From Candidatus Omnitrophota bacterium (GTDB taxonomy: Bacteria > Omnitrophota > Gorgyraeia > Zapsychrales > Fredricksoniimonadaceae), in contig JBGAJA010000002.1 in NCBI GenBank assembly GCA_044225175.1, positions 408,991-472,990 on the forward strand: a stretch of 64,000 bases of DNA. The letters are read 5' to 3'. Positions 4,025-64,000 of the stretch are shown here, piece after piece. A model generated the notes under the pieces. It had not been told where the DNA came from. It saw nothing but the letters and a program-made list of their open reading frames with translations, and searched no databases. The translations under genes were made by a program, and so were the position numbers. How positions within the stretch are numbered: position 1 is the stretch's first letter; each line of letters begins with the position of its first letter.

Positions 4025-6547
4025 ATGCCCTATACTACAAACGATATTAAAGCAATTGAAGCCAAGTGGCAGAAATTCTGGGATGATCAGAAGACCTTTA
4101 AGGTTGAAGCGGATCCTTCTAAGAAGAAGTATTATGTCTTGGAAATGTTCCCATATCCCTCCGGCAAAATCCACATGGGCCATGTGCGCAATTACACAAT
4201 TGGCGATGTGATTGCCCGTTACAAAATGATGCAAGGTTTTAATGTACTACATCCCATTGGCTATGATGCCTTTGGACAACCCGCCGAAAACGCAGCAATC
4301 AAACACAAAACAAATCCCTCTGACTGGACATACAAATGCATTGAACAAATGCATGACGAATTAAAGAAGATGGGATTTTCTTATAACTGGGACCGTGAAT
4401 TCTCGACCTGTGATAGTGAATACTACAAATGGAATCAGTGGATTTTTATTAAGATGTATGAGAAGGGCTTAGCTTATAAGAAAGCTTCTTCCGTTAATTG
4501 GTGCCCTAGTTGTCAGACGACACTCGCCAATGAAGAAGTGATTGATGGGGCTTGTTGGCGGTGCAAAACAGTTGTGGATCAAAAAGATTTGGATCAATGG
4601 TATCTGAAGATCACTCAGTATGCTGAAAGCTTACTGGAAGATTTGAAACAGTTGGATCAATGGCCTTCACGTGTGCGTGCCATGCAAGAGAATTGGATTG
4701 GTAAAAGCTTTGGTGTGGAGATTTATTTCAAAATTGTAGGGGTGGGTTCCAAACCCACCCAACAAAAGGCAGGTTTAGAACCTGCCCCTACAGATGATGT
4801 AATCAAGGTTTTCACCACACGTCCGGATACTATCTTTGGTGCAACCTACGTCGTACTTGCCCCTGAACATCCCTTAGTTAAGAAATTGGTTAAAGGAACT
4901 CCTCAAGAAAAAGATGTTTTAGCATTTATCGAAAAGACGGCTAATAAAAGCAAGTCTATGCGTATGTCTGGTGGAGAACGTAAAGAAGGAATAGCTCTTG
5001 GGATTCATGCGATTAATCCAGTGAATGGAGAATCTATTCCAGTATTTATAGGGGACTATGTTCTCATGGATTATGGAACGGGTGCCATTATGGCAGTTCC
5101 AACACATGATCAGCGTGATTTCGAATTTGCCAACACGCATAAGCTTCCCATGCGCATTGTTATTCAGCATCCCAAAGAAGCCTTTACATTAGAAAGCATG
5201 TCTCAAGCCTATGAGGATCCAGGTGTTCTTGTGAATTCCAAGGAATTTGATGGCATTGGTAATGAAGAAGCTAAGAAGAAAATTGGCGAATGGATGACTC
5301 AAGAAAAAATGGGTAAGATCACTGTCCACTGGCGCTTGCGTGATTGGCTTATTTCTCGTCAGCGTTATTGGGGAACGCCCATTCCTATGATCTATTGTGA
5401 TAGTTGCGGGGTTGTACCTGTTCCTTATGAACAATTGCCCGTTGAATTGCCTAAGAATGTTGAGATTACAGGTCAGGGAGGCAGTCCATTAAATCGTGTG
5501 TCAGAATTCGTGAATGTGTCTTGTCCTAAATGCAAGAAAGCAGCCCGTCGTGAAACAGACACGATGGCCACATTCTTTGATTCTTCTTGGTATTTCTTAA
5601 GATTTTGCTCCGCACATAATGATAAAGAGGTGTTTAATAAGAATAATGCCAAGTATTGGATGACAGTTGATCAATACATTGGGGGGATTGAACATGCCAT
5701 TCTTCATTTGCTCTATTCTCGTTTCTTCACCAAGTTCTTTAAAGATTTAGGATTGATTGACTCAAGCGAACCTTTTAACCGTTTACTGACTCAAGGGATG
5801 GTGCTTAAAGATGGGGAGGTCATGTCTAAGTCTCGGGGCAATACGGTGGATCCAGATGAAGTCTTAAGCAAATATGGTGCAGATACACTTCGTTTGTTCA
5901 TTCTTTTTGCAGCTCCTCCAGAAGATCAACTGGAGTGGAATAGCGACGGGCTAGAAGGTTCTTGGAGGTTCTTGAATCGTGTGTATCAAATGGTTGAGAA
6001 ACGTTATGTGAAAGATGTAAAAGAAGAGGGTAAGGATCAGGTATTGGAACGAGCCCGTCATTCTGCCATCAAACAAATCACTCAATCGTTTGAAGAAGGA
6101 TATAAATTTAATACCGCTATCAGCCAGATGATGATTTTGGCAAATGCCATTGATAAATATAAGCCAGAATCCACGAGCACATTGAATCAAGCCATCGAAA
6201 CGCTCGTCTTATTATTAGGCCCTTTTGCGCCTCACATGTGCGAAGAGCTTTGGCAAATGATGTCCGCCAGAGGCGGATCCGCCTTTGGCGGAGGTCAAGA
6301 CTATTCTAGTATTAGCCGTGTTGCCTGGCCCAAATTCGATGAAGCAGCCCTTATCCAAGATGAAATCACATATGCCATTCAAATCAATGGTAAGGTCAGA
6401 AGCGAAGTCAAAGCCTCAGTCACAGCCACCCAAGAAGACTTGCAGAAGTTAGTCTTAGCCGATGCCAATGTCGCCCGCTATTTAGAGGGCGCCACCATCA
6501 AAAAATTCATTGTCGTCCCAAAGAAATTAGTTAGTATAGTCATTTAG
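4025..6547 (+). CDS. leuS: Leucyl-tRNA synthetase.
   Basis: HMGH motif (PSGKIHMGHVRNY), a KMSKS-like SKSRGN motif, 840 aa. The gene carries two in-frame palindromic insertions (4736-4791 and 6266-6299). Confidence 0.95.
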   Translation: MPYTTNDIKAIEAKWQKFWDDQKTFKVEADPSKKKYYVLEMFPYPSGKIHMGHVRNYTIGDVIARYKMMQGFNVLHPIGYDAFGQPAENAAIKHKTNPSDWTYKCIEQMHDELKKMGFSYNWDREFSTCDSEYYKWNQWIFIKMYEKGLAYKKASSVNWCPSCQTTLANEEVIDGACWRCKTVVDQKDLDQWYLKITQYAESLLEDLKQLDQWPSRVRAMQENWIGKSFGVEIYFKIVGVGSKPTQQKAGLEPAPTDDVIKVFTTRPDTIFGATYVVLAPEHPLVKKLVKGTPQEKDVLAFIEKTANKSKSMRMSGGERKEGIALGIHAINPVNGESIPVFIGDYVLMDYGTGAIMAVPTHDQRDFEFANTHKLPMRIVIQHPKEAFTLESMSQAYEDPGVLVNSKEFDGIGNEEAKKKIGEWMTQEKMGKITVHWRLRDWLISRQRYWGTPIPMIYCDSCGVVPVPYEQLPVELPKNVEITGQGGSPLNRVSEFVNVSCPKCKKAARRETDTMATFFDSSWYFLRFCSAHNDKEVFNKNNAKYWMTVDQYIGGIEHAILHLLYSRFFTKFFKDLGLIDSSEPFNRLLTQGMVLKDGEVMSKSRGNTVDPDEVLSKYGADTLRLFILFAAPPEDQLEWNSDGLEGSWRFLNRVYQMVEKRYVKDVKEEGKDQVLERARHSAIKQITQSFEEGYKFNTAISQMMILANAIDKYKPESTSTLNQAIETLVLLLGPFAPHMCEELWQMMSARGGSAFGGGQDYSSISRVAWPKFDEAALIQDEITYAIQINGKVRSEVKASVTATQEDLQKLVLADANVARYLEGATIKKFIVVPKKLVSIVI
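4736..4791. repeat. REP-like nested palindrome, family A, with outer stem GTAGGG...CCCTAC. It lies in frame inside leuS.
   Basis: The sequence is gtaggggtgggttccaaacccacccaacaaaaggcaggtttagaacctgcccctac. It contains two internal hairpins, GGTGGGTT/AACCCACC and GCAGGTTT/AACCTGC. Its translation within leuS is VGVGSKPTQQKAGLEPAPT. Confidence 0.85.
6266..6299. repeat. 22-bp perfect palindrome CCAGAGGCGGATCCGCCTTTGG plus flanks, family D. It lies in frame inside leuS.
   Basis: A nearly identical 34-nt stretch is found at 29555-29588 inside the second large secreted protein gene. Within leuS it translates as ARGGSAFGGGQ. Confidence 0.7.
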
Positions 6548-6619: not shown

Positions 6620-7171
6620 ATGTCTGAAAGAAAGCAATTACGGTTAAAGAATTATGAATATTCTGCGGCGGGGTATTATTTTGTGACGATTTGTGTTCAG
6701 GATCGTGTTCGTTTGTTTGGGGAAATAATAAATAATGAAATGATTTTAAACGAAACCGGAGAAATTCTAAAATTTACATGGTTTGATTTGGTAAATCATA
6801 ATGCAAATATTATATTGGATCATTTTGTGATCATGCCGAATCATATTCATGGAATTATACAAATCGTAGGGGCGGGTTCTGAACCCGCCTTTATGCCCAA
6901 TGGGGCAGGTTTGGAACCTGCCCCTACGACATTGGCAGAAATTGTTCGTCAATTTAAAACATTTTCATCAAAACGAATCAATAAATTATGCAATACGCCG
7001 GGCACAAAAATCTGGCAACGCAATTATTATGAACGTGTTATCAGAAATGAAAAAGAATTGAATAATATTCGACAATATATACAAGACAATCCTATAAATT
7101 GGGAATTTGATGAAAATTATTGTAGAGGTGGGTTCCAAACCCACCTTTTATGCGTAATAGGGCAGGTTTAG
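6620..7171 (+). mobile_element. REP-associated tyrosine transposase (RAYT, IS200/IS605-like TnpA_REP). It carries an internal REP insertion and a 3' end encoded by a REP.
   Basis: HuH motif (PNHIHGII) and the RAYT signature WQRNYYERVIRNE. A REP copy lies in frame between these two motifs, and another overlaps the last 16 codons. Confidence 0.85.
6866..6927. repeat. REP-like palindrome, family A, in frame inside the RAYT gene.
   Basis: The sequence is gtaggggcgggttctgaacccgcctttatgcccaatggggcaggtttggaacctgcccctac. It translates as VGAGSEPAFMPNGAGLEPAPT. Confidence 0.85.
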
Positions 7172-7184
7172 AACCTGCCCCTAC
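7122..7184. repeat. REP-like palindrome, family A, overlapping the RAYT 3' end and stop codon.
   Basis: The sequence is gtagaggtgggttccaaacccaccttttatgcgtaatagggcaggtttagaacctgcccctac. Confidence 0.85.
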
Positions 7185-8513: not shown

Positions 8514-10156
8514 TGAATTTCCCAAGACCAACAGATTTAAATGATGCACAGTGGAATGCCGTTTCCCACGATGATTCCCACCTTATGATCGTCGCAGGAC
8601 CAGGCACAGGAAAGACGCACACAATCACCTATCGTATTATTCGCACCATTCAAAAATTAAAACAAGATCAAAAGATCCTAGCGATCACATTTACCAATAA
8701 AGCAGCCAATCAGATGCGTGAGCGTTTGGAGGCAAAGATTCCCAATTATTGGAGACAGGTAAATGTAGGTACATTTCATCGTTTTGCTTTGAGTTTACTG
8801 CGGGAGTTTAGTCAGTACTTGCCTTTGCCAAAAGATTTTCAAATTGCTCTTCCTGAAGATATTCAGGAATGTCTAAGTGAGATTTTCCCTCAGAAAAGCC
8901 CCTTGCAGCGCAAAGAAACGCTGGAGGCAATATCTTGGATGAAATCCACTCAATTGGCTATTGATCCCTCCGAAGACTTCCAGAAATACCACCGCTTCTT
9001 AAGAGCCAAAGGTATGATTGATTTTGATGATATCTTACGAGAAGTTTTGATGCTTTTGGAGAATGAAGAGGTGTTACATAAGGTGCAAGGCAGATATCGT
9101 TACATCTTTGTGGACGAATATCAGGATGTGAATATTGTTCAGAATGCGTTGTTGAAATTGATTGTAGGGGTAACCCCCTGTGGTTGCCCTGAAGATAAGG
9201 GCAGGCACGGGGGCCTGCCCCTACTGACGGTTATCGGTGACCCTAATCAATCGATCTATGGCTTTCGTGGTTCTCAGGTGAAATTCTTTAATCGTTTCGA
9301 AGAAGATTTTCCAGGAGCTGCCAAGCTATACCTAAATGAGAATTATCGTTCAACAGCTAATCTTCTAACGGCCAGTTCTCAGGTCATCAATAAAGACCCT
9401 GGAGGCAAAGTTCCAGAGGCCATTGCCAAGATCTACGACGAGGGAAGACTTGTTATTCATGAAGCAGCAACTGACAGAGCAGAAGCTGAGTATGTGGCTC
9501 ATCAGATTGAACAATTGATTGGCGGAGTGAGCATGTTCTCTCAAGACTCCAATCGTGTTGAAACATATAGGCAGGCGCACCGTAGTTTTGGCGATATCGC
9601 TATTTTGTATCGCCTTAACACCCAAAAGAATGTATTGATTGAAGCGCTTGATCATTTAGGAATTCCTTATAGTGTGTCTTCTAAACCTAAGGTAGGGGCG
9701 GCTCTTGCAGACGCCCTTTTAGGGCAGGGGCAAGCCCTGCCCCTACAGACACAGGAACAGAAAGATGAACAGATATTAAATTGTTTCGAAGAATCCTTGG
9801 ACTACAAAGTAGAAAAGGTCTCTCTTTTAACATTACATGCTGCCAAAGGTTTGGAATTTCCTGTTGTTTTTATTGTCGGATGCGAAGCAAAGCTAATTCC
9901 CTTGGACATCAACGATCTTAAAGGCGACATCCAAGAAGAACGCCGGCTTTTTTATGTGGGGATGACACGAGCAAAAGAACATTTGTTTTTAACTAGAGCA
10001 GGACGGCGTCAAATCTTTGGAACCACGGTATTTAATCCACCCTCTATGTTTTTAGCTGACATTGAAGAAGACCTTAAAGCCTATGAGAATTCCAAGCTTC
10101 GCCGAAAATTATCTAAAAGCAAGGAAGCCGAGAAACAGCAGTTGAAATTGTTTTAG
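8513..10156 (+). CDS. Short UvrD/PcrA/Rep-family SF1 DNA helicase.
   Basis: Walker A (AGPGTGKTHT), motif II (FVDEYQD), motif III (VIGDPNQSIYGFRG), and a C-terminal segment LTLHAAKGLEFPVVF..FYVGMTRAK. It carries two in-frame REP insertions. Confidence 0.8.
   Translation: MNFPRPTDLNDAQWNAVSHDDSHLMIVAGPGTGKTHTITYRIIRTIQKLKQDQKILAITFTNKAANQMRERLEAKIPNYWRQVNVGTFHRFALSLLREFSQYLPLPKDFQIALPEDIQECLSEIFPQKSPLQRKETLEAISWMKSTQLAIDPSEDFQKYHRFLRAKGMIDFDDILREVLMLLENEEVLHKVQGRYRYIFVDEYQDVNIVQNALLKLIVGVTPCGCPEDKGRHGGLPLLTVIGDPNQSIYGFRGSQVKFFNRFEEDFPGAAKLYLNENYRSTANLLTASSQVINKDPGGKVPEAIAKIYDEGRLVIHEAATDRAEAEYVAHQIEQLIGGVSMFSQDSNRVETYRQAHRSFGDIAILYRLNTQKNVLIEALDHLGIPYSVSSKPKVGAALADALLGQGQALPLQTQEQKDEQILNCFEESLDYKVEKVSLLTLHAAKGLEFPVVFIVGCEAKLIPLDINDLKGDIQEERRLFYVGMTRAKEHLFLTRAGRRQIFGTTVFNPPSMFLADIEEDLKAYENSKLRRKLSKSKEAEKQQLKLF
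9164..9224. repeat. REP-like palindrome, family A variant, in frame inside the UvrD-like helicase.
   Basis: The sequence is gtaggggtaaccccctgtggttgccctgaagataagggcaggcacgggggcctgcccctac. It translates as VGVTPCGCPEDKGRHGGLPLL and lies immediately before motif III. Confidence 0.8.
9692..9746. repeat. REP-like palindrome, family A variant, in frame inside the UvrD-like helicase.
   Basis: The sequence is gtaggggcggctcttgcagacgcccttttagggcaggggcaagccctgcccctac. It translates as VGAALADALLGQGQALPLQ. Confidence 0.8.
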
Positions 10157-10168
10157 ATTTTTACTATA

Positions 10169-10257
10169 GTGTCATTGCGAAGCCGATGTTTTTGTCGGCT
10201 GAAGCAATCTTACATGACAGATTGCTTCGTCGCAAAAAGCGCTCCTCGCAATGACAC
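10169..10257. repeat. Complex nested palindrome, family B, with outer inverted repeat GTGTCATTGCGA...TCGCAATGACAC.
   Basis: Homologous copies are at 14454-14535 and 18603-18687. The GTG start proposed for comEA by the ORF track lies inside this element. Confidence 0.8.
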
Positions 10258-10318
10258 TGTACTTATAAGCCAATCCCCTGGCTTTTTTAATAACTTCCCA
10301 ACCATATATTATTTTCCC

Positions 10319-10654
10319 ATGATTCATTTAACACCTCAGGAAAAATCTGTAGTTATATGTCTTTGTGTGATTACTCTATGCGGATCACTCGTTCATGTGG
10401 GTTTGCAGAAAGAGATACGTGTGTTTGATTGGCTGCACACAGCCCAGAAGAAGTCATTTGCAACCACGATCAATATTAATAAAGCCTCAATGGAGGAGTT
10501 GTTAAGGGTTCCTGGCATTGGGCCCAAGACAGCAGAATTCATCTTAGATTATCGAACCTCAAAGGGAAAATTCACCAATCTGAATCCTTTGCAAGAGGCT
10601 AGAGGCATGAGCCCGGAGCGTTATGAACGTATTAGCAAATATCTTAAAATTTGA
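10319..10654 (+). CDS. comEA: ComEA-like helix-hairpin-helix DNA-binding protein. The start was trimmed to MIHLTPQEK after the repeat; the ORF track starts at a GTG at 10169.
   Basis: N-terminal TM/signal-like segment, and ASMEELLRVPGIGPKTAEFILDYR, a tandem HhH motif typical of ComEA. Confidence 0.65.
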   Translation: MIHLTPQEKSVVICLCVITLCGSLVHVGLQKEIRVFDWLHTAQKKSFATTININKASMEELLRVPGIGPKTAEFILDYRTSKGKFTNLNPLQEARGMSPERYERISKYLKI

Positions 10655-14453: not shown

Positions 14454-14535
14454 GTGTCATTGCGAGCGAACGCAGTGAGTGTGGCAATCTCTCACGATCA
14501 AGATTGCTTCGTCGCTTCGCTCCTCGCAATGACAC
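14454..14535. repeat. Family B nested palindrome between hsp20 and clpB.
   Basis: The sequence is gtgtcattgcgagcgaacgcagtgagtgtggcaatctctcacgatcaagattgcttcgtcgcttcgctcctcgcaatgacac. Confidence 0.8.
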
Positions 14536-17870: not shown

Positions 17871-17938
17871 CGGTTTTTTTTCAATATAGCCTCACAGGAC
17901 TTGATTTTTCATGTTTATATGGTTTACTTTATATAAAT

Positions 17939-20900
17939 ATGAGAAAACAAACCACAATGACCTACATCAGCCGAAGGCTGATCAGCCTCTGGCTGACAGC
18001 TGCTTTTATAGTTGGCCCTTTGCCCAGGGCTCAGGCGCAAGATTTTACCTTACCTAAGCCTGGTGTCATGGTGCATCTAAGCCCTGAATTTACACCTGCT
18101 CATTTACAGGGCATGACCATTCATCCTGGTAATGCCTTACAATTCGATTTCTTAATTCACAAAGGCGATAAGAATTTACAAGCAGATCAGAAGAAAGAAG
18201 AATATAAGAAACTGATCAAGTATTTCCTCGCTTCTTTGACCATTCCTGATGAAGATCAATGGGTGAACCTTTCTCCCTATGAGAAGGATCGGATCATTAA
18301 GGATGATTTTGGTAAGACTGAGATGGGCCGAGATCTTTTAGCTCAGGATTATCTATTAAAACAAATTACCTCTAGCCTCATTTATCCCGAAGATAGTTTA
18401 GGACAGAAGTTCTGGGACAAGATCTATGAACGTGCCTGGAAGGAATATCATACGACCAATATCCCAGTGAATACGTTTAATAAGGTCTGGATTGTTCCGG
18501 ATGAAGCGATTGTGTATGAGAGTGGCAATAGCGCTTACATTCTCAAAAGTCATTTGAAGGTCATGCTAGAGGAAGATTATTTGTCATTAGAAAAGCATTC
18601 TGGTGTCATGGCGAACCACAAAGGGGTGAAGCAATTTTTTAAATCTGAAAAGATTGCCCCGTCGCCTTCGGCTCCTCGCAATGACACAAGTTCTCTTGGT
18701 TCGCAGGTAGTCCGCGAAATTGTACTTCCTGCTCTTGAGAAGGAAGTTAATGAAGGGGAGAATTTTTCTAATCTTCGTCAAATGTACAGCGGGATGGTTC
18801 TGGCGACATGGTACAAGAAAGCCCTTAAAGAATCTTTACTGGGAAAGTTTTATACTGATAAAGCCAAGGTCAAAGGAGTTAATCAGGATCCACAAAATAA
18901 TCAAGCCATTTACCAACAGTATCTCAAAGCTTTCAAGAAGGGCTGTTTTAATTATATCAAAGAAGATGTAGACAAATACACCAAGGAATCGGTTCCTAGA
19001 AAATATTTCTCCGGCGGTTTTCACCGCCCTATGTTCAGAAATGGATCCGAAGTAACCTTTATCCCTGCAGGGAAGTTGAATAGAACCTTAGCGATGGCAG
19101 CTATAGTTTCATCGCAAGAATCTCTAGAGCAGGCCACTGTTGCGTTTAATGCAGCAGGAGAGATAAGGAACAGTGCTCAATCGGCAGGCGATCAGGCGAT
19201 GATGGAAAATCCTCCGAAAGACTCCAATGCGGGAAGAGAAACATTAACCTTAGAAGCTTTGGAGAGAATTATGAGCTCCTATATCCAATCGAATGAAAAA
19301 TCGATCTATGGGTTTATTCAAACTTTGATACATAGCGTAGGAGGGGAAGCAAACATAACTGCGGATCCTAAAGGAATCGAACAAGGCGCTACAATTAGCT
19401 TTGCTTTTAGTTTTCGCAGAAATATTGAGTTATCAGGCAAAACATATAGTGCCCTTGAAGTGTCAACATTTATCCTAACCGAACTTGAAAGAAAGCTTAA
19501 TGAAGAATATGGCCGCAACTATAAAGTTGAAAGCCATATCATAGACAACCACGAGAGAGAATTGCATGATGACAGGAATTTTCAACTTGTGGTTGATATC
19601 GATAGAAGAACATTTGAAAAGGCGAAAATGCGCTATAAACAATTAATGTCCTTTTCGGATATTCTTAGTCGAATTGATGAAATACCCAGAACAGCACGCC
19701 CTAATATTTTATTTATGGTGCCTAGAGACGGCAACAGCCCAATTTATTTGATGCTTCAAAATACCGGACGATACATATTCTTTGACCATGTCACTGCCTT
19801 TAGTGTATTTAATGAAGAGCTTTATTATTCTTATTTGGATCCACAGGAACAAGGCAATGTAATTTTTGTTTGTTTGAATGCAAAAGGTGTTATTAGGCAA
19901 TTAAGACCAAATGAGGTCCCAAAGAGCCTCAGAGAAGAATTTGGTATACAAGAATCTGATTTGATGGATTTAAATGGTAATTATAAGGCCAGTTTTATTA
20001 TTGGCGGGTTCAATGATAATAATGTAATTGATTCCTTAACTCAGCTAAAAGGCGTCAAAATGGAAGATGTTGAGAATAAGATGAAAGAAACTTCACAAAC
20101 AGATGCAAAATCGATTAAGGATTTATTAAAAGATCAAAACACAAAGGTAACAAAGAGAGGATTTACACATCAAGAAATAGCTGAAGCGCTTTTTATAGCT
20201 ATGCAAAATATACCTGGAAAATATTTTAAAATTGCCAACTATGATTTCTTAATTGAAAAATCAACAAGTGATTCAAATAAAGATCCTGTATTCATAAACC
20301 CCAACAATTTTCTATCGCCAGACGCACGAAAAGTCCAATATACGCTAAGGAACATCTCATTGGATAGATCAATTACATTTTTTGCATCAACTGCTTACGA
20401 TATTGCGAATTTTGGTTTTTACGGGGACCTTGATCCATTAAATATGATCGAAGTATTAGGATTAAAACCTGTGGGAAGAGATACTGGCTCTTCTGAGGAT
20501 CAGCCAAATATTATCGATGGTAAAGCTCGAATCAATCCTGATGCAAGGATGCCAGATATTAAGAAAAAGATGCGAGCAAGTAACGAAGAGTTAGAGCGAT
20601 ATCATGCTGGGATTACAGCGGCATTAACGGCCGTAGTGAAGATTAATTTAGGCAAAGATGATATAGGAGAGACAAAAATTATTAATTTTGGATCAACATC
20701 AAGAGATACGCACATCGATAATTTTTCTAATGAAGGTTTAGATATTGATTATCTTATTCAATTTAGTACTGAAGATGAGTTGAAGCTGTTTAGACGAAAC
20801 CTGAAAACATTCGGTTTTTCTGCTGCAAAGGTTATTTTTCAAGATAAAGGTTTTGAATTTGCGCAGGGACAGAGAGGTTTGACTCCTGAAGGTCAATATT

Positions 20901-25114: not shown

Positions 25115-25173
25115 GTAGGGGCGGCCCCCTGTGGCCGCCCTTAATAAGGGCCGGCACAGGGGCCTGCCCCTAC
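25115..25173. repeat. REP-like palindrome, family A variant, in the dnaK-dnaJ intergenic region.
   Basis: The sequence is gtaggggcggccccctgtggccgcccttaataagggccggcacaggggcctgcccctac. Confidence 0.8.
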
Positions 25174-26710: not shown

Positions 26711-29700
26711 TTGTTTCAACGCGGGACATCATTAGGTGTACTTCTAGCTTTCTGTCTATCCTTGATTGCTCCTTATCAAACGGTTTGGGCTAAAGATGCG
26801 GGATTGATTTTGCCGAAACCCGGGGCAATGGTTAATTTAAGCCCTGCTTTTGAGCCTGTGATGATGAAGGGATTGAAGGTTGATCCGAAGAATCCGTTTC
26901 GGTTTGAATTCATTTTGGATCCAGGTGACGTAGGGGTGGGTTCTAAAACCATCCCTACGGATTTGAAAATCGAATCCACCAAATTAATCAAATATTTCCT
27001 CGCCTCTTTAACCATCCCCGAAAAAGACCTTTGGGTCAATTTATCTCCTTATGAAAAAGATCGAATGATTCCTTCCACCTTGGCCCAGACTGAGATGGGA
27101 CGTGATATGTTGTCCCAGGATTACATCCTCAAACAGCTAACAGCCTCTTTGATCTATCCTGAGAAAGAACTGGGAAAGGCGTTCTGGGATAAGGTCTATT
27201 CCAAAGCTCAAGCAATCTACGGAAGCACCCAGATTCCAGTGAACACCTTTAACAAGGTTTGGATTGTCGCAGACAAGGCAGATGTATTTGAGAGGGGAAA
27301 TGTAGCGTATGTGGTGGGGGCACATTTGAAGGTGATGCTAGAAGAAGACTATTTAGCGAATTCGAAAAATCAATTGCCAGCCAGGGGACATGTTCCGGAC
27401 AAAACCAACAGGAACGTGTCCCCCAGCACTTTGCCAAGCCATGTCGGGTTGGAAATGAAAGCAACCCAGGGACAATCACCAAACGTATTAGGAAACCAAA
27501 TCATCCGCGAAATTGTCCTTCCTGCTCTCGAACAAGAAATCAACACCGGCAAGCATTTCGCCCTCTTACGCCAGATGTTTTATTCCATGATCCTAGCCAG
27601 TTGGTACAAAATGGCGCTCAAGGATGCACTCATTTCTAAAATTTACGGCAATCAAAGTAAGGTCAAGGTGGGCATTAACCAGAAAGATATTAAAACCAAC
27701 GACGAAATCTTCAATCAATACCTGAAAGCTTACAAGAAGGGAGTGTTTAATTACATCAAGGAAGACATTTCCGCCATAGGCGGAACCGCCTCTGGCGGAG
27801 ATCACACTCGTCAACAACGTATCCCTAGGAAATATTTTTCAGGTGGAGAGCACGTTTGGCAATACCTAGATCATGCTCGGGTGGTCCATATGATCCCTAG
27901 AGGAACAAGTTTTGCAAATCAAGCCATGATTGCAGTGGTGGATATGACGCCTAAATCTAAAAATTCCGCCATGGCTTCAAAATTGACCCCTAATCAAATC
28001 ATCAATTTATTTAATCAAAAGTTTCCAGATAAGCATAAGCAGATTGCAGGGCTTCCTATTGCTGATGTTCAAAGCATAATAAATCCTACTACACAAAGAG
28101 CGTTTTATAGGGACTTTAAGAATAGAACAGAAAGAGATGGGATAGTGTTTAGCCGTTCCGCGACTAATCCTGTTTTTCTTAACAACTATATTAATCATAT
28201 TATGAAATTTGTTAAACCAGGTCAGAAAATTCTGTGTGTGGGAGAAGGCAGGGGCCATGTGGCTGCGGAATTAAAGAAAAGAGGGATAGATGTTTATGCC
28301 ATTGATCTGAGTGAGGAAAATACTGTTATTTCAAAAAGAAAAGGTGTTAACCAAATGGTTGGAGATGCCAGGGATTTACTTAAGCTGTACGGTCCAGAAA
28401 ATTTTGATATTGTGCTTTTTAGCGAATCCATAGGAGCAATGCCTATGGAGGACGTTTTAAAACAGGCCCATCTTGTGTTAAAACAAGGCGGAAATCTTCT
28501 GATCGGCGCTTATCCATCAACAGAAGAACGGGTGAAGATATCTCATCGGAGTAAATTCGTATATTATTCCACCCTTGAAATTAATGAAGCCCTCACTAAA
28601 GCTAAGTTTTCACATTTTCATCATGAACCCGTTTATGAAAATCCTGTCAATTTCTTTGATCTAGATGAAATGCCTGCAACATATCTTAATTTATTCGTAG
28701 CAACTAAACCACAAACAATGGATCTGCAATCCAGACAGGATCGTGCGATGGGAGTTCTTCAAGAAGATATTTCAAGGGAATTCTTATTGCTTCAAAGAAA
28801 AGTTCAGGAGTTACTTCAATATATTTTAATTGATGAAAATTGGGCAACATCACAACCAGTTACCTCAGAAATTTTTGAGGGGTTAGATTTAGATGCAAAC
28901 AGTCTTTTGAATGATTTAAGGACAAATGGTTATCTGAATGCAGCTAATGTCATGACAACAAAGCTTCAGGATCTTGAGTTTTCTTCCTTAATGCAATTTA
29001 CAAACCCCGTTTTTTCAGCCAAGAAATATGAGATTCACCAGAGAATTAAGAAGTTAAGACCGCTTATGGACTTTCGCGATATCACCCATCATGCTTTAAC
29101 AGGCCTTCTTTATTTTATGCTGATTTTAAGTACGGAAGACCTTCAAATCCTAGAAAAATTCAAAACAGACGAATTGGATGATATTGCGCATCTTTTATCG
29201 GGTTTGGGGGCTTCTTTAGGAAACCTTAATCAATATGAGATTCCAGGTGAATTAAGTACCAAGGATTTTATGTTTGCAACTCAATTGGGTAGGGTCGTGG
29301 GGGGGGTGCAACGAGCTTTGAAGGATCGAGTCTTTTTAGAAGAACATCAACAAGCAATCGCAGAAGTTGTCCAAAGGATTGAATTGATAAGCGAGCAAAC
29401 TAATCAAATCATTAAGCAAATCAGAGACCAGGCCATGAGTAATACCCCAGTTGATTCCACCAAACGTACAACACCAGGAGGTATTGACTTTGATCGCTCT
29501 AAAATGCAAATGAATGTGTCTAAAGAAGGCCAGGGAGTTCAAATGGATGCTCCAGCCAGAGGCAGGTCCGCCTTTGGCGGAGATCAAGCTATGATCGAAC
29601 GCATTCAGCGGGAGGGTTTTGATGGTTTAGAGTTTACTATTCGATCTCTTGAACCAGTGAAAGATTTGGAGTTGTTTTTGGGACTAAAAGAAAAGCCCCT

Positions 29701-29722
29701 AAGTCTTGCCGTTGCAAAATAA
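26711..29722 (+). CDS. Large secreted modular protein, paralog 2 (1003 aa), with a class I SAM-dependent methyltransferase module.
   Basis: Signal peptide. The N- and C-terminal domains are shared with paralog 1. A KILCVGEGRGHVAAE...IDLSE...GDARDL..FDIVLF Rossmann methyltransferase motif lies near 28226-28450. Confidence 0.6.
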   Translation: MFQRGTSLGVLLAFCLSLIAPYQTVWAKDAGLILPKPGAMVNLSPAFEPVMMKGLKVDPKNPFRFEFILDPGDVGVGSKTIPTDLKIESTKLIKYFLASLTIPEKDLWVNLSPYEKDRMIPSTLAQTEMGRDMLSQDYILKQLTASLIYPEKELGKAFWDKVYSKAQAIYGSTQIPVNTFNKVWIVADKADVFERGNVAYVVGAHLKVMLEEDYLANSKNQLPARGHVPDKTNRNVSPSTLPSHVGLEMKATQGQSPNVLGNQIIREIVLPALEQEINTGKHFALLRQMFYSMILASWYKMALKDALISKIYGNQSKVKVGINQKDIKTNDEIFNQYLKAYKKGVFNYIKEDISAIGGTASGGDHTRQQRIPRKYFSGGEHVWQYLDHARVVHMIPRGTSFANQAMIAVVDMTPKSKNSAMASKLTPNQIINLFNQKFPDKHKQIAGLPIADVQSIINPTTQRAFYRDFKNRTERDGIVFSRSATNPVFLNNYINHIMKFVKPGQKILCVGEGRGHVAAELKKRGIDVYAIDLSEENTVISKRKGVNQMVGDARDLLKLYGPENFDIVLFSESIGAMPMEDVLKQAHLVLKQGGNLLIGAYPSTEERVKISHRSKFVYYSTLEINEALTKAKFSHFHHEPVYENPVNFFDLDEMPATYLNLFVATKPQTMDLQSRQDRAMGVLQEDISREFLLLQRKVQELLQYILIDENWATSQPVTSEIFEGLDLDANSLLNDLRTNGYLNAANVMTTKLQDLEFSSLMQFTNPVFSAKKYEIHQRIKKLRPLMDFRDITHHALTGLLYFMLILSTEDLQILEKFKTDELDDIAHLLSGLGASLGNLNQYEIPGELSTKDFMFATQLGRVVGGVQRALKDRVFLEEHQQAIAEVVQRIELISEQTNQIIKQIRDQAMSNTPVDSTKRTTPGGIDFDRSKMQMNVSKEGQGVQMDAPARGRSAFGGDQAMIERIQREGFDGLEFTIRSLEPVKDLELFLGLKEKPLSLAVAK
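27384..27424. repeat. Hairpin GGGGACATGTTCC-(15)-GGAACGTGTCCCC, in frame at the hypervariable site of paralog 2.
   Basis: A 13-bp inverted repeat with one mismatch. It occupies the same variable segment where paralog 1 carries the family-B element. Confidence 0.55.
29555..29588. repeat. Family D palindrome copy (CCAGAGGCAGGTCCGCCTTTGG), in frame in paralog 2.
   Basis: About 32 of 34 nt identical to 6266-6299 in leuS. It translates as ARGRSAFGGDQ. Confidence 0.7.
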
Positions 29723-48193: not shown

Positions 48194-48925
48194 ATGAAGA
48201 CCCTAAAAGATACAGATGTGGTGATTCTAGCAGGAGGTTTGGGTAAAAGGCTTCAGTCTGTGACGGGCGGTTCACAGAAGATCCTTGCTCAGATTGATGG
48301 TAAACCTTTTATTAGCATCTTAATTGACTATCTTGCAGCCCAAGGTGCTTCGCGCTTTATCTTATGCACTGGCCATGATGCAAAGAATGTTGAAGAGACG
48401 TTAGCTAATGCCCACAGAGGACTCACTGTTTTATTTTCCAGAGAAGATGAACCTTTGGGTACGGGGGGAGCAATTAAAAAAGGGGCAGGCTTAGTTGAAA
48501 GCGACTTATTTCTGGCTATGAATGGAGATTGTTTTTGTGTGATTGATTATAATCGTATGATTCAAGAGCATCAAATGAACAAAGCCCAAGCCACTATTGC
48601 AATAACACAAATTGCAGATGCTCGAGAATATGGAACAATTGAAATTAATTCGAATAAAGAAATTATTACTTTTAAAGAAAAACAACCAATCTTGCAAAAA
48701 GCTTTGATCAACACTGGTACATATTGTTTGAATCGAAATATATTTAATGTAGGGGTGGGTTCTAAACCCACCCAAGGAAAATTTTCCATCGAATACGATT
48801 TTTTCCCTTATTTGGTTGGGAAAGGTTTTTTTGGGTTTGAAGTAGAAAATAAATTTATAGACATCGGTACGCCTGAGAGATATCAATGGGCGCAACAACA
48901 TTTAGCAGGATTAAATGGAAAATAA
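48194..48925 (+). CDS. hddC: Sugar-1-phosphate nucleotidyltransferase, D-glycero-alpha-D-manno-heptose 1-phosphate guanylyltransferase (HddC)-like.
   Basis: N-terminal VVILAGGLGKRL. The gene carries a half REP (48749-48773) in frame. Confidence 0.65.
   Translation: MKTLKDTDVVILAGGLGKRLQSVTGGSQKILAQIDGKPFISILIDYLAAQGASRFILCTGHDAKNVEETLANAHRGLTVLFSREDEPLGTGGAIKKGAGLVESDLFLAMNGDCFCVIDYNRMIQEHQMNKAQATIAITQIADAREYGTIEINSNKEIITFKEKQPILQKALINTGTYCLNRNIFNVGVGSKPTQGKFSIEYDFFPYLVGKGFFGFEVENKFIDIGTPERYQWAQQHLAGLNGK
48749..48773. repeat. Partial family-A REP (first hairpin only), in frame in the hddC-like gene.
   Basis: The sequence is gtaggggtgggttctaaacccaccc. It translates as VGVGSKPTQ, the same peptide as the leuS insertion. 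Confidence 0.7.
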
Positions 48926-63450: not shown

Positions 63451-63479
63451 GTCAAAAAGGTGTCTGACACCTTTTTGAC
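63451..63479. terminator. Bidirectional rho-independent terminator hairpin.
   Basis: Perfect 14-bp inverted repeat GTCAAAAAGGTGTC-t-GACACCTTTTTGAC. An A-tract and a T-tract flank a GC core. It lies right after the fmt stop. Confidence 0.6.
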
Positions 63480-63511
63480 AATTATATATATACATGGCAT
63501 ACTTTTGCCAT

Positions 63512-64000
63512 CCTATGTTTAAACGTCTTATTGCCTCTATTGTCTGTCTTTGCTTTATTTCTTCAACTGTTCACGTTTCCTATGCCCAGACAGGTTTTAA
63601 ACCTGTCTCTACGTTAAATTTGCCAGAACCAGGCACTATGGTAGGCCCCTCAGTACCTTTTACACCTTTGTCCTTAAAAGGCCTAGTAATTAACCCTAAA
63701 AAGCCTTTGGAATTTCAATTCATTGTGGATACGGGTACAAATCATACCCCTCCAGATATTCAATCCGAATCCACCAAATTAATCAAATACTTCCTAGCCG
63801 GCCTAACGATTCCTGAAGGAGACCTGTGGGTGAATTTAAGCCCCTATGAGAAGGAACGAATCACCCCCCAAGCCTTAGGCCAGACCGAGTTAGGGCGAGA
63901 TTTGCTGGCGCAAGACTATATCTTAAAGCAGTTAACTGCCTCTTTGATCTATCCTGAGCGTGACCTAGGTAAGGAGTTCTGGAGCCGGGTGTATCAACAG
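63512..64000 (+). CDS. Large secreted modular protein, paralog 3 (N-terminal fragment only; it continues past the window).
   Basis: Signal peptide and the conserved N-terminal domain, including KLIKYFLAGLTIPEGDLWVNLSPYEKERI...LLAQDYILKQLTASLIYPE. Confidence 0.6.

Follow-up and report, generated by a model that had tools for sequence, protein, structure and literature searches.

The 64,000-nucleotide stretch of DNA analysed here (the window; Candidatus Omnitrophota bacterium, assembly GCA_044225175.1, contig JBGAJA010000002.1, positions 408,991 to 472,990) carries a 56-nucleotide palindromic element at 4736–4791, on the + strand, within leuS, the gene for leucyl-tRNA synthetase (LeuRS). The element is a REPIN, i.e. 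a pair of inverted repetitive extragenic palindromic (REP) hairpins with GTAG feet, and it is read through in frame. The interpretation that we favour, with a probability of roughly 85%, is that this REPIN is the non-autonomous partner of a REP-associated tyrosine transposase (RAYT) encoded 2 kb downstream, a HuH/Tyr single-strand DNA transposase of subclass 2.4, and that it sits in a tolerant turn of LeuRS where it is translated and neutral. In-frame GTAG REPs and REP dimers (PMC3733652) and the in-gene REPs of RAYT subclass 2.4 (PMC6006769) are already known. What may be new is the host phylum, the repeated colonisation of one LeuRS turn by two unrelated palindrome families, and the occupation of one and the same nucleotide position by different REPIN subtypes in sister genomes.

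Anatomy and reading frame of the leuS element

The host gene (4025–6547, + strand) encodes a protein of 840 residues that has intact HMGH, VMSKS and TTRPDT motifs and scores 1100 bits against TIGR00396. The best database hits, among them an identical protein on a 793-kb contig, assign the organism to Omnitrophota. An earlier note, made from the letters of the window, had described a 56-bp nested palindrome within this gene that adds about 19 residues to the synthetase, and both parts of that description are borne out. The element, GTAGGGGTGGGTTCCAAACCCACCCAACAAAAGGCAGGTTTAGAACCTGCCCCTAC, starts with GTAGGGG and ends with CCCCTAC. It consists of two hairpins, each with a 9-bp stem and a 3-nt loop and with GTAG feet on opposite strands; the arms, at 4736–4760 (+) and 4767–4791 (−), are separated by a 6-nt spacer, and the two feet together form the outer stem GTAGGGG/CCCCTAC. 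On both arms GTAG immediately precedes a short GC-rich stem-loop, as in GTAG REPs, and the single strand of the whole element can alternatively fold as one long hairpin, as REPINs do (RNA minimum free energy −36.3 kcal/mol, z = −5.5, matched by none of 200 shuffles). Over the window, five matches to GTAGGGG N30-60 CCCCTAC compare with an expectation of 0.00 from 100 shuffles, and there are 20 matches to the foot plus three bases, with one mismatch allowed, against 4.2 expected. Rfam gives no match anywhere in the window. A tRNA T-arm mimic was considered for the GGGTTCnnnGAACCC hairpin and dropped because of a loop that departs from the T-loop consensus.

Frame 0 of the open reading frame (ORF) 4025–6547 runs through the element, which codes for residues 238–256, VGVGSKPTQQKAGLEPAPT, so that the protein reads IYFK, then IVGVGSKPTQQK, then AGLEPAPTDDVIK across the insert junctions. 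A frameshift or stop codon inside the element, either of which would count against an in-frame insertion, was looked for and is not present. The 56 nt fill 19 codons, the last of which is shared with the host, and relative to empty orthologues about 16 residues are gained on balance, the original K-D-S turn being lost. Might the element be an assembly artefact, or a chance palindrome in genuine LeuRS sequence? The source is probably a metagenome-assembled genome, and repeats are able to mis-join contigs into chimeras. Nevertheless, frame and conserved LeuRS sequence run on at both sides of the element, related inserts occupy the same codon in independent assemblies of four other samples, and shuffles predict zero matches; a chance palindrome in conserved LeuRS sequence is moreover ruled out by the alignment of orthologues described below. 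We therefore regard either explanation as exceedingly improbable.

An insertion-tolerant turn of LeuRS

The segment was predicted by the earlier note to be missing from orthologous synthetases, and it is indeed missing from most of them. In an alignment of 120 orthologues, in which the window protein is compared with 119 others from Omnitrophota, the great majority read FKV-KDS-xE-xIxVFTTRPDT, i.e. they have a 3-residue turn where the window protein has 19 residues. The aligned LeuRS of T. thermophilus (PDB 1H3N) likewise shows a 16-residue gap exactly at the insert. A metagenome contig search with the N-terminal half of LeuRS, which among the matches listed returned one close relative (L126) and 79 distant LeuRS, served as a length control: the segment from WIGxS to TTRPDT measures 29–33 residues in 48 LeuRS of other phyla, with one exception of 54 (L147), and 46 residues in the window protein. 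In an AlphaFold2 model (mean predicted local distance difference test score, pLDDT, 81.6), strands 227–238 and 255–264 flank a coil, and pLDDT falls below 50 at residues 242–251. The insert is thus predicted to be the extended tip of the first β-hairpin of the connective peptide 1 (CP1) editing domain. This agrees with the surface loop that had been anticipated for it, in the form of a low-confidence loop at the β-hairpin turn at the entrance to that domain.

Several orthologue lineages hold a palindromic insert of their own at the same turn. When the orthologues are placed on a neighbour-joining tree, at least four separate lineages have a GTAG-type insert at this turn, and at least four others have an unrelated palindrome of the TCCGCC...GGCGGA type (peptide SAKGGSA[SL]GG). 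Such a series of GTAG-type and unrelated insertions at one position is consistent with frequent insertions that are screened by a permissive-loop filter, and the turn at residue 238 is one that tolerates extra length. The DNA of the site was compared in five other genomes (L001, L002, L123, L124 and L125). It is empty in L125 (TTT AAG GTC AAG GAC CGC AGT GAG), as it is in the close relative L126. L001 carries a 59-nt REPIN of another subtype (subtype B; the leuS element of the window is of subtype A) with the same junction as the window, AAA-ATT/GTAGGGG, the slash marking the start of the element. L002, L123 and L124 have 29-nt double-foot hairpins (GTAG...CTAC) at the residue-238 turn, and the junction in L123 is AAA-GTT/GTAGGGG. 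The window, L001 and L123, which are sister genomes, hence hold three different elements (subtype A REPIN, subtype B REPIN and double-foot hairpin) at a shared junction, FK[IV]/GTAGGGG.

These comparisons also bear on whether the hairpin has been co-opted by its host, be it as a ribosome-pausing mRNA hairpin at the boundary between the catalytic body and CP1, as a binding site for the RAYT or another protein, or as a useful protein loop. The hairpin is very stable (−36 kcal/mol) and located at a domain boundary, the LeuRS site is filled in several lineages, and wherever DNA was compared the inserts at the leuS site are all hairpin-forming palindromes, their sequences differing. On the other hand, most orthologues are free of any insert, including near relatives at 77–80% identity, and the same elements occur in many unrelated proteins. 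In addition, the presence at one turn of two unrelated palindrome families, with sizes from 29 to 59 nt, fits tolerance better than a specific function. Co-option is in our view improbable, and a tolerated passenger in a permissive turn is the reading that we retain. Recurrent colonisation of one β-turn provides a natural map of insertion-tolerant sites in LeuRS, and REPIN turnover can be approached by comparing the subtypes that differ between genomes at one orthologous site.

Further length variation in LeuRS was observed at several positions. The orthologues P0075 (KIVGTDETI) and P0080 (KIVGDNQTI) have, at the protein level, a bare Val-Gly at the turn beside relatives with full double-foot inserts, which may be the footprint of a lost hairpin. 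The leuS gene of L124 (GCA_023247595.1), a distant member of the Omnitrophota with 71% LeuRS identity, contains two in-frame 29-nt double-foot hairpins, the second of which (L124:4969–4997) lies near residue 657 and encodes VGAGFKPSPT. Around residues 666 and 716 of the window numbering there are length differences in P0012, P0022, P0027, P0039, P0044, P0052, P0104 and others; the peptides at these sites, seen at the protein level only, are typical of dispersed repeats (SVIPAPSSVIP, FPNASVGNPD, LQLRFAKQSGRGNPD and GLSSSILMSLF), which suggests that most LeuRS indels across Omnitrophota may be element-derived.

The window gene itself has two in-frame palindromic inserts, one from each of two families. 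The second is TCCGCCAGAGGCGGATCCGCCTTTGGCGGA at 6263–6292, with further copies at 17970–18003, 27770–27804 and 29555–29588, and is unrelated to the GTAG REPINs. Its 30 nt equal exactly 10 codons and form two tandem CCGCC/GGCGG hairpins that lack a GTAG foot. Near the LeuRS C-terminus it is read in frame as SARGGSAFGG (residues 747–756), a segment present neither in any of the 119 orthologues nor in T. thermophilus LeuRS, and two more copies are in frame in ORF 26711–29722. The SAKGGSA[SL]GG peptide that occupies the residue-238 turn in other Omnitrophota lineages is of the same type. No transposase could be linked to this element.

The RAYT gene and a proposed route into leuS

The RAYT, or TnpA_REP, gene (6620–7171, + strand) encodes 183 residues, matches Pfam Y1_Tnp and has the motifs NHIH (residues 74–77), WQ (132–133) and YIQDNP (153–158). 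Its product aligns with residues 88–123 of E. coli TnpA_REP (4ER8), the region of GTAG contact and catalysis, and retains the equivalents of W94, Q95, E100, R104, Y115 and N119, residues whose roles are described in PMC6006769. Two REPINs of subtype A, the subtype of the leuS element, are associated with the gene, as would be expected of a cognate RAYT. One (6866–6927, +) begins 6 residues past the HuH motif, just beyond the HuH strand, and codes in frame for the 21-residue segment VGAGSEPAFMPNGAGLEPAPT, the last codon ending at 6928. The other (7122–7184, +) overlaps the 3′ end of the gene, is read in the third frame (RGGFQTHLLCVIGQV) and provides the TAG stop codon. The 72-nt 5′ flank has no GTAG-type copy. 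The earlier note had the RAYT gene surrounded and invaded by the element family; it is invaded, and bordered at its 3′ end only.

According to Quentin et al. 2018 (PMC6006769), RAYT genes of subclass 2.4, which correspond to group 4 of Bertels et al., typically have an in-frame REP between the HuH and Tyr motifs and are accompanied by double-foot REPs. The RAYT of the window fits this subclass as judged from its motifs, its HuH-to-helix insertion and its double-foot REPs. The motifs conform to NH[IFV]H, WQ and YIxNNP except for one D-for-N difference in YIQDNP, and a frame-keeping REPIN of the variable kind seen in the subclass lies between β3, which carries HuH, and αC. Subtype A elements are long canonical REPs with three G-C pairs (GGG/CCC) at the base of the stem, and double-foot GTAG...CTAC hairpins are found at 26930–26958 as well as in the leuS genes of L002, L123 and L124. 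Unlike the subclass as described, the gene is flanked by a REPIN at its 3′ side only, and Omnitrophota are not among the phyla given for it in that paper. A search for RAYT homologues, biased to proteins sharing words with the insert, found peptides of the type VGAGS[EK]PA...(R/G)AGLEPAPT at this position in 118 of the 120 best homologues, with very different spacer lengths, and at five loci from other phyla the palindromic DNA itself is present inside the RAYT gene. A REPIN within the RAYT gene is thus a family trait and not a local accident. Relatives L001 and L125 and the P0007 contig lack the RAYT gene at the syntenic position; its arrival at this locus is therefore recent.

Taken together, we propose that a REPIN was copied in a RAYT-dependent manner into the tight β-turn at which the CP1 editing domain is entered, or took the place of an earlier copy. 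Its most likely source would be the REPIN at the 3′ end of the RAYT gene, because this is the copy closest in sequence to that in leuS, with nearly identical arms and a difference mainly in the spacer. In an essential gene, the survivors would be only those insertions that are in frame, in the Val-Gly frame and in loops of this kind; selection would then keep open the Gly/Ser/Pro/Ala frame that starts from GTA-GGG and yields a flexible loop. The insert would be transcribed, translated into a surface loop of 19 residues and retained, probably as a neutral passenger. We infer mobilisation of the leuS element by the RAYT of the window from sequence comparisons.

The leuS copy could also have come from recombination or gene conversion between an older resident GTAG-footed element and the RAYT-associated REPIN, or from replication slippage at hairpins. 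This would account for the different subtypes at the identical AAA-ATT/GTAGGGG junction in sister genomes, for a leuS copy that differs mainly in its spacer from the REPIN 2.4 kb away, and for junctions that are unlike clean insertions. However, there is no direct evidence for conversion tracts, the shared feet are just 7 nt long, and presence and absence at other sites points to de novo insertion: the REPIN at 9164, in a gene for a UvrD-like helicase, is missing from the orthologues in L001 and L125. We consider this origin very improbable. A related scheme, somewhat unlikely but less so, is a cassette exchange at fixed sites within genes, in which the shared GTAGGGG/CCCCTAC feet would be cleaved by RAYTs and the hairpins between them exchanged. 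The different subtypes at the shared leuS junction, together with a UvrD site that combines a conserved right arm with an unrelated left arm, could reflect replacement in place, and the data fit either this or independent insertions. If true, cassette exchange would make resident in-frame REPINs reusable landing pads, and a RAYT newly arrived beside leuS would have overwritten an older element. A linked idea is that the REPIN embedded in the RAYT coding sequence would serve as a heritable "seed" carried along by the gene.

Several observations weigh against RAYT-driven insertion of a translated REPIN. We know of no organism in which transposition of a REPIN by a RAYT has been directly demonstrated, and the papers cited here treat it as hypothesised. 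The best NCBIfam match of the RAYT, REP_Tyr_transpos (NF047646), scores 67.3 bits as encoded and 74.2 bits without the REPIN-encoded residues, in both cases under the curated cut-off of 80 bits; the IS200 (insertion sequence 200) match is far lower (24–29 bits), and the insert breaks the RAYT profile match into two stretches. The element lengths (56, 62, 61, 55 and 29 nt) are never divisible by three, and each occupied site lacks three to six host codons. A clean cut-and-paste event would not leave such junctions, and one has to assume additional deletions or an imprecise mechanism. That the insert is translated is suggested by the maintenance of its frame across genomes, and by that observation only. 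Finally, the census of the family covers 64 kb of the genome. Inspection of the junctions revealed neither a target-site duplication nor a conserved motif, only a weak pyrimidine preference at −1/−2 and a frequent GA downstream. With no flanking direct repeat and with REP feet as termini, the elements also differ from miniature inverted-repeat transposable elements, which have the terminal inverted repeats of an insertion sequence and a target-site duplication. For RAYT-dependent insertion we nonetheless retain the estimate given at the outset.

The element family in the window and in other genomes

Nine loci with 15 half-sites are present in the 64-kb window, far above the expectation from shuffles. 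Seven are wholly intragenic and in frame, one lies over a stop codon and one is intergenic, so that the extragenic location implied by the name REP does not apply to 7 of the 9. In addition to the leuS copy and the two at the RAYT gene, they comprise two REPINs in frame in the same UvrD-like helicase gene, one of subtype B at 9164–9224 (+), between motif II (DEYQD) and GDPNQ, and one of subtype C at 9692–9746 (+), a site that is occupied in L001 and empty in L125. A subtype B REPIN at 25115–25173 (+), in the gap between dnaK and dnaJ, is the sole fully intergenic copy. The remaining loci are single hairpins: a 29-nt double-foot hairpin at 26930–26958 (+), in frame (VGVGSKTIPT) in the 1003-residue ORF 26711–29722; a subtype A REP at 48749–48773 (+), in frame (VGVGSKPTQ) in a nucleotidyl-transferase gene (48194–48925); and a REP with the degenerate foot GTAGAG at 63588–63612 (−), where the + strand reads QTGFKPVST in frame, just past the signal peptide of a paralogue of ORF 26711. 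Subtype A has stems of the form GGGTTC-loop-GAACCC, and subtypes B and C have other stems on the same GTAGGGG/CCCCTAC feet. All seven in-frame copies use either the GTA-GGG-G.. (Val-Gly) frame or its mirror image in the right arm (...G-L-E-P-A-P-T). The TAG of the foot falls in the next frame, and the third, in which the RAYT tail is read, is open (RGGFQTH...). The claim that the peptide recurs in other copies of the element holds, and extends to the palindromic DNA, which the copies likewise have in common.

The six REPIN dimers (4736–25173) share their polarity on the + strand, with the GTAGGGG[CT]G.. arm preceding the ..CCTGCCCCTAC arm. Their host genes are all on the + strand, and cumulative GC skew rises monotonically over the window, so that + appears to be the leading strand. 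The common polarity would fit strand-specific transposition of single-strand DNA, in what is a small sample. Three paralogous secreted proteins (17900–18700, 26711–29722 and 63470–64000) have about 250 nt at 61–73% identity in common. Two of them contain REP-derived in-frame inserts at different positions (26930–26958 and 63588–63612), and they provide empty-site comparators within the genome; the 26930–26958 hairpin is missing from the two window paralogues of its ORF.

A contig search for GTAGGGG N30-60 CCTGCCCCTAC returned at least 120 loci from many other phyla; the source genome is not among the matches listed. The GTAGGGG...CCTGCCCCTAC superfamily occurs in Chloroflexota, Acidobacteriota, Desulfobacterota, Cyanobacteria, Planctomycetota and others. 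Among the matches listed, 92 of 123 copies from other phyla have no spanning ORF, i.e. they are mostly extragenic, and of the 31 that are spanned 25 are in the Val-Gly frame and none is in the TAG frame. Several of the hosts there are real genes, which encode an alpha-2-macroglobulin, a Ser/Thr kinase domain, a PD-(D/E)XK nuclease, a pyridine-nucleotide oxidoreductase and a radical-SAM/TRAM protein.

The closest precedent is the survey of Di Nocera, De Gregorio & Rocco 2013 (PMC3733652), which reported GTAG and CGTC REPs, single and as dimers, within genes. These encode 7–30 residues, are most numerous in Opitutus terrae and reside in genes for UvrD/Rep helicases, uvrA, and glycyl- and isoleucyl-tRNA synthetases, with GTAG termini often supplying the TAG stop of a flanking ORF. 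The window elements resemble these in their GTAG foot, GC-rich stem of 6–9 bp and inverted dimers, in being in frame in genes of known proteins with about 7–30 residues that begin VG..., in their UvrD/Rep helicase and tRNA synthetase hosts, and in the donation of a TAG stop, as at 7122–7184. Opitutus terrae is moreover a relative within the PVC (Planctomycetes–Verrucomicrobia–Chlamydiae) superphylum. In contrast, Omnitrophota and leuS lie outside that catalogue, and REPs in the survey are mostly intergenic, compared with 7 of 9 intragenic loci in the window. The REPINs of Pseudomonas and E. coli (Bertels & Rainey 2011, PMC3116915; Ton-Hoang 2012, PMC3333891; Messing 2012, PMC3479197) share the two inverted REPs, the long hairpin and the RAYT, whose GTAG-contact residues are conserved here, but are essentially extragenic, and their RAYTs belong to subclasses 2.2 and 2.5 and are without internal REPs.

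The earlier note had also drawn a parallel to the Rickettsia palindromic elements (RPEs; Ogata et al. 2000, as described in PMC3733652), with a co-resident RAYT as the distinguishing feature. As far as that description goes, the RPEs are likewise in-frame palindromes in functional, often essential genes that add surface peptides. RPE-4 and RPE-6 are CGTC-tagged there, RPE-1 appears only as a longer palindromic insertion, and the CGTC REPs are given as having no dedicated transposase. The leuS element, with its GTAG foot, 56-nt length and adjacent cognate RAYT, has neither the CGTC tag nor the RPE-1 consensus of RPEs. The tie to a RAYT with intact HuH and Tyr motifs stands, and such a link is not new (PMC3733652; PMC6006769).

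A literature search for Omnitrophota combined with REP or RAYT found nothing. Our data do not overturn current understanding; they provide a clean and somewhat extreme example, with two in-frame palindromes in one essential synthetase and most copies intragenic. Judged from the letters of the window, a REPIN/RAYT system would be active in a phylum known mostly from metagenomes, and in this window it shapes protein sequences more than intergenic space. In-frame inserts inflate apparent protein divergence and split profile matches, making it advisable to mask them in phylogenomics of these lineages.

Finally, a third repeat family, GTGTCATTGCGAG...GCTCCTCGCAATGACAC, is present in the window as inverted copies at 10153–10180 and 10246–10273, 14454–14490 and 18651–18687. 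One pair lies at the start of a ComEA-like ORF (10169–10654), which reads ...CFVAKSAPRNDT... there, and the family looks like another dispersed palindromic element.

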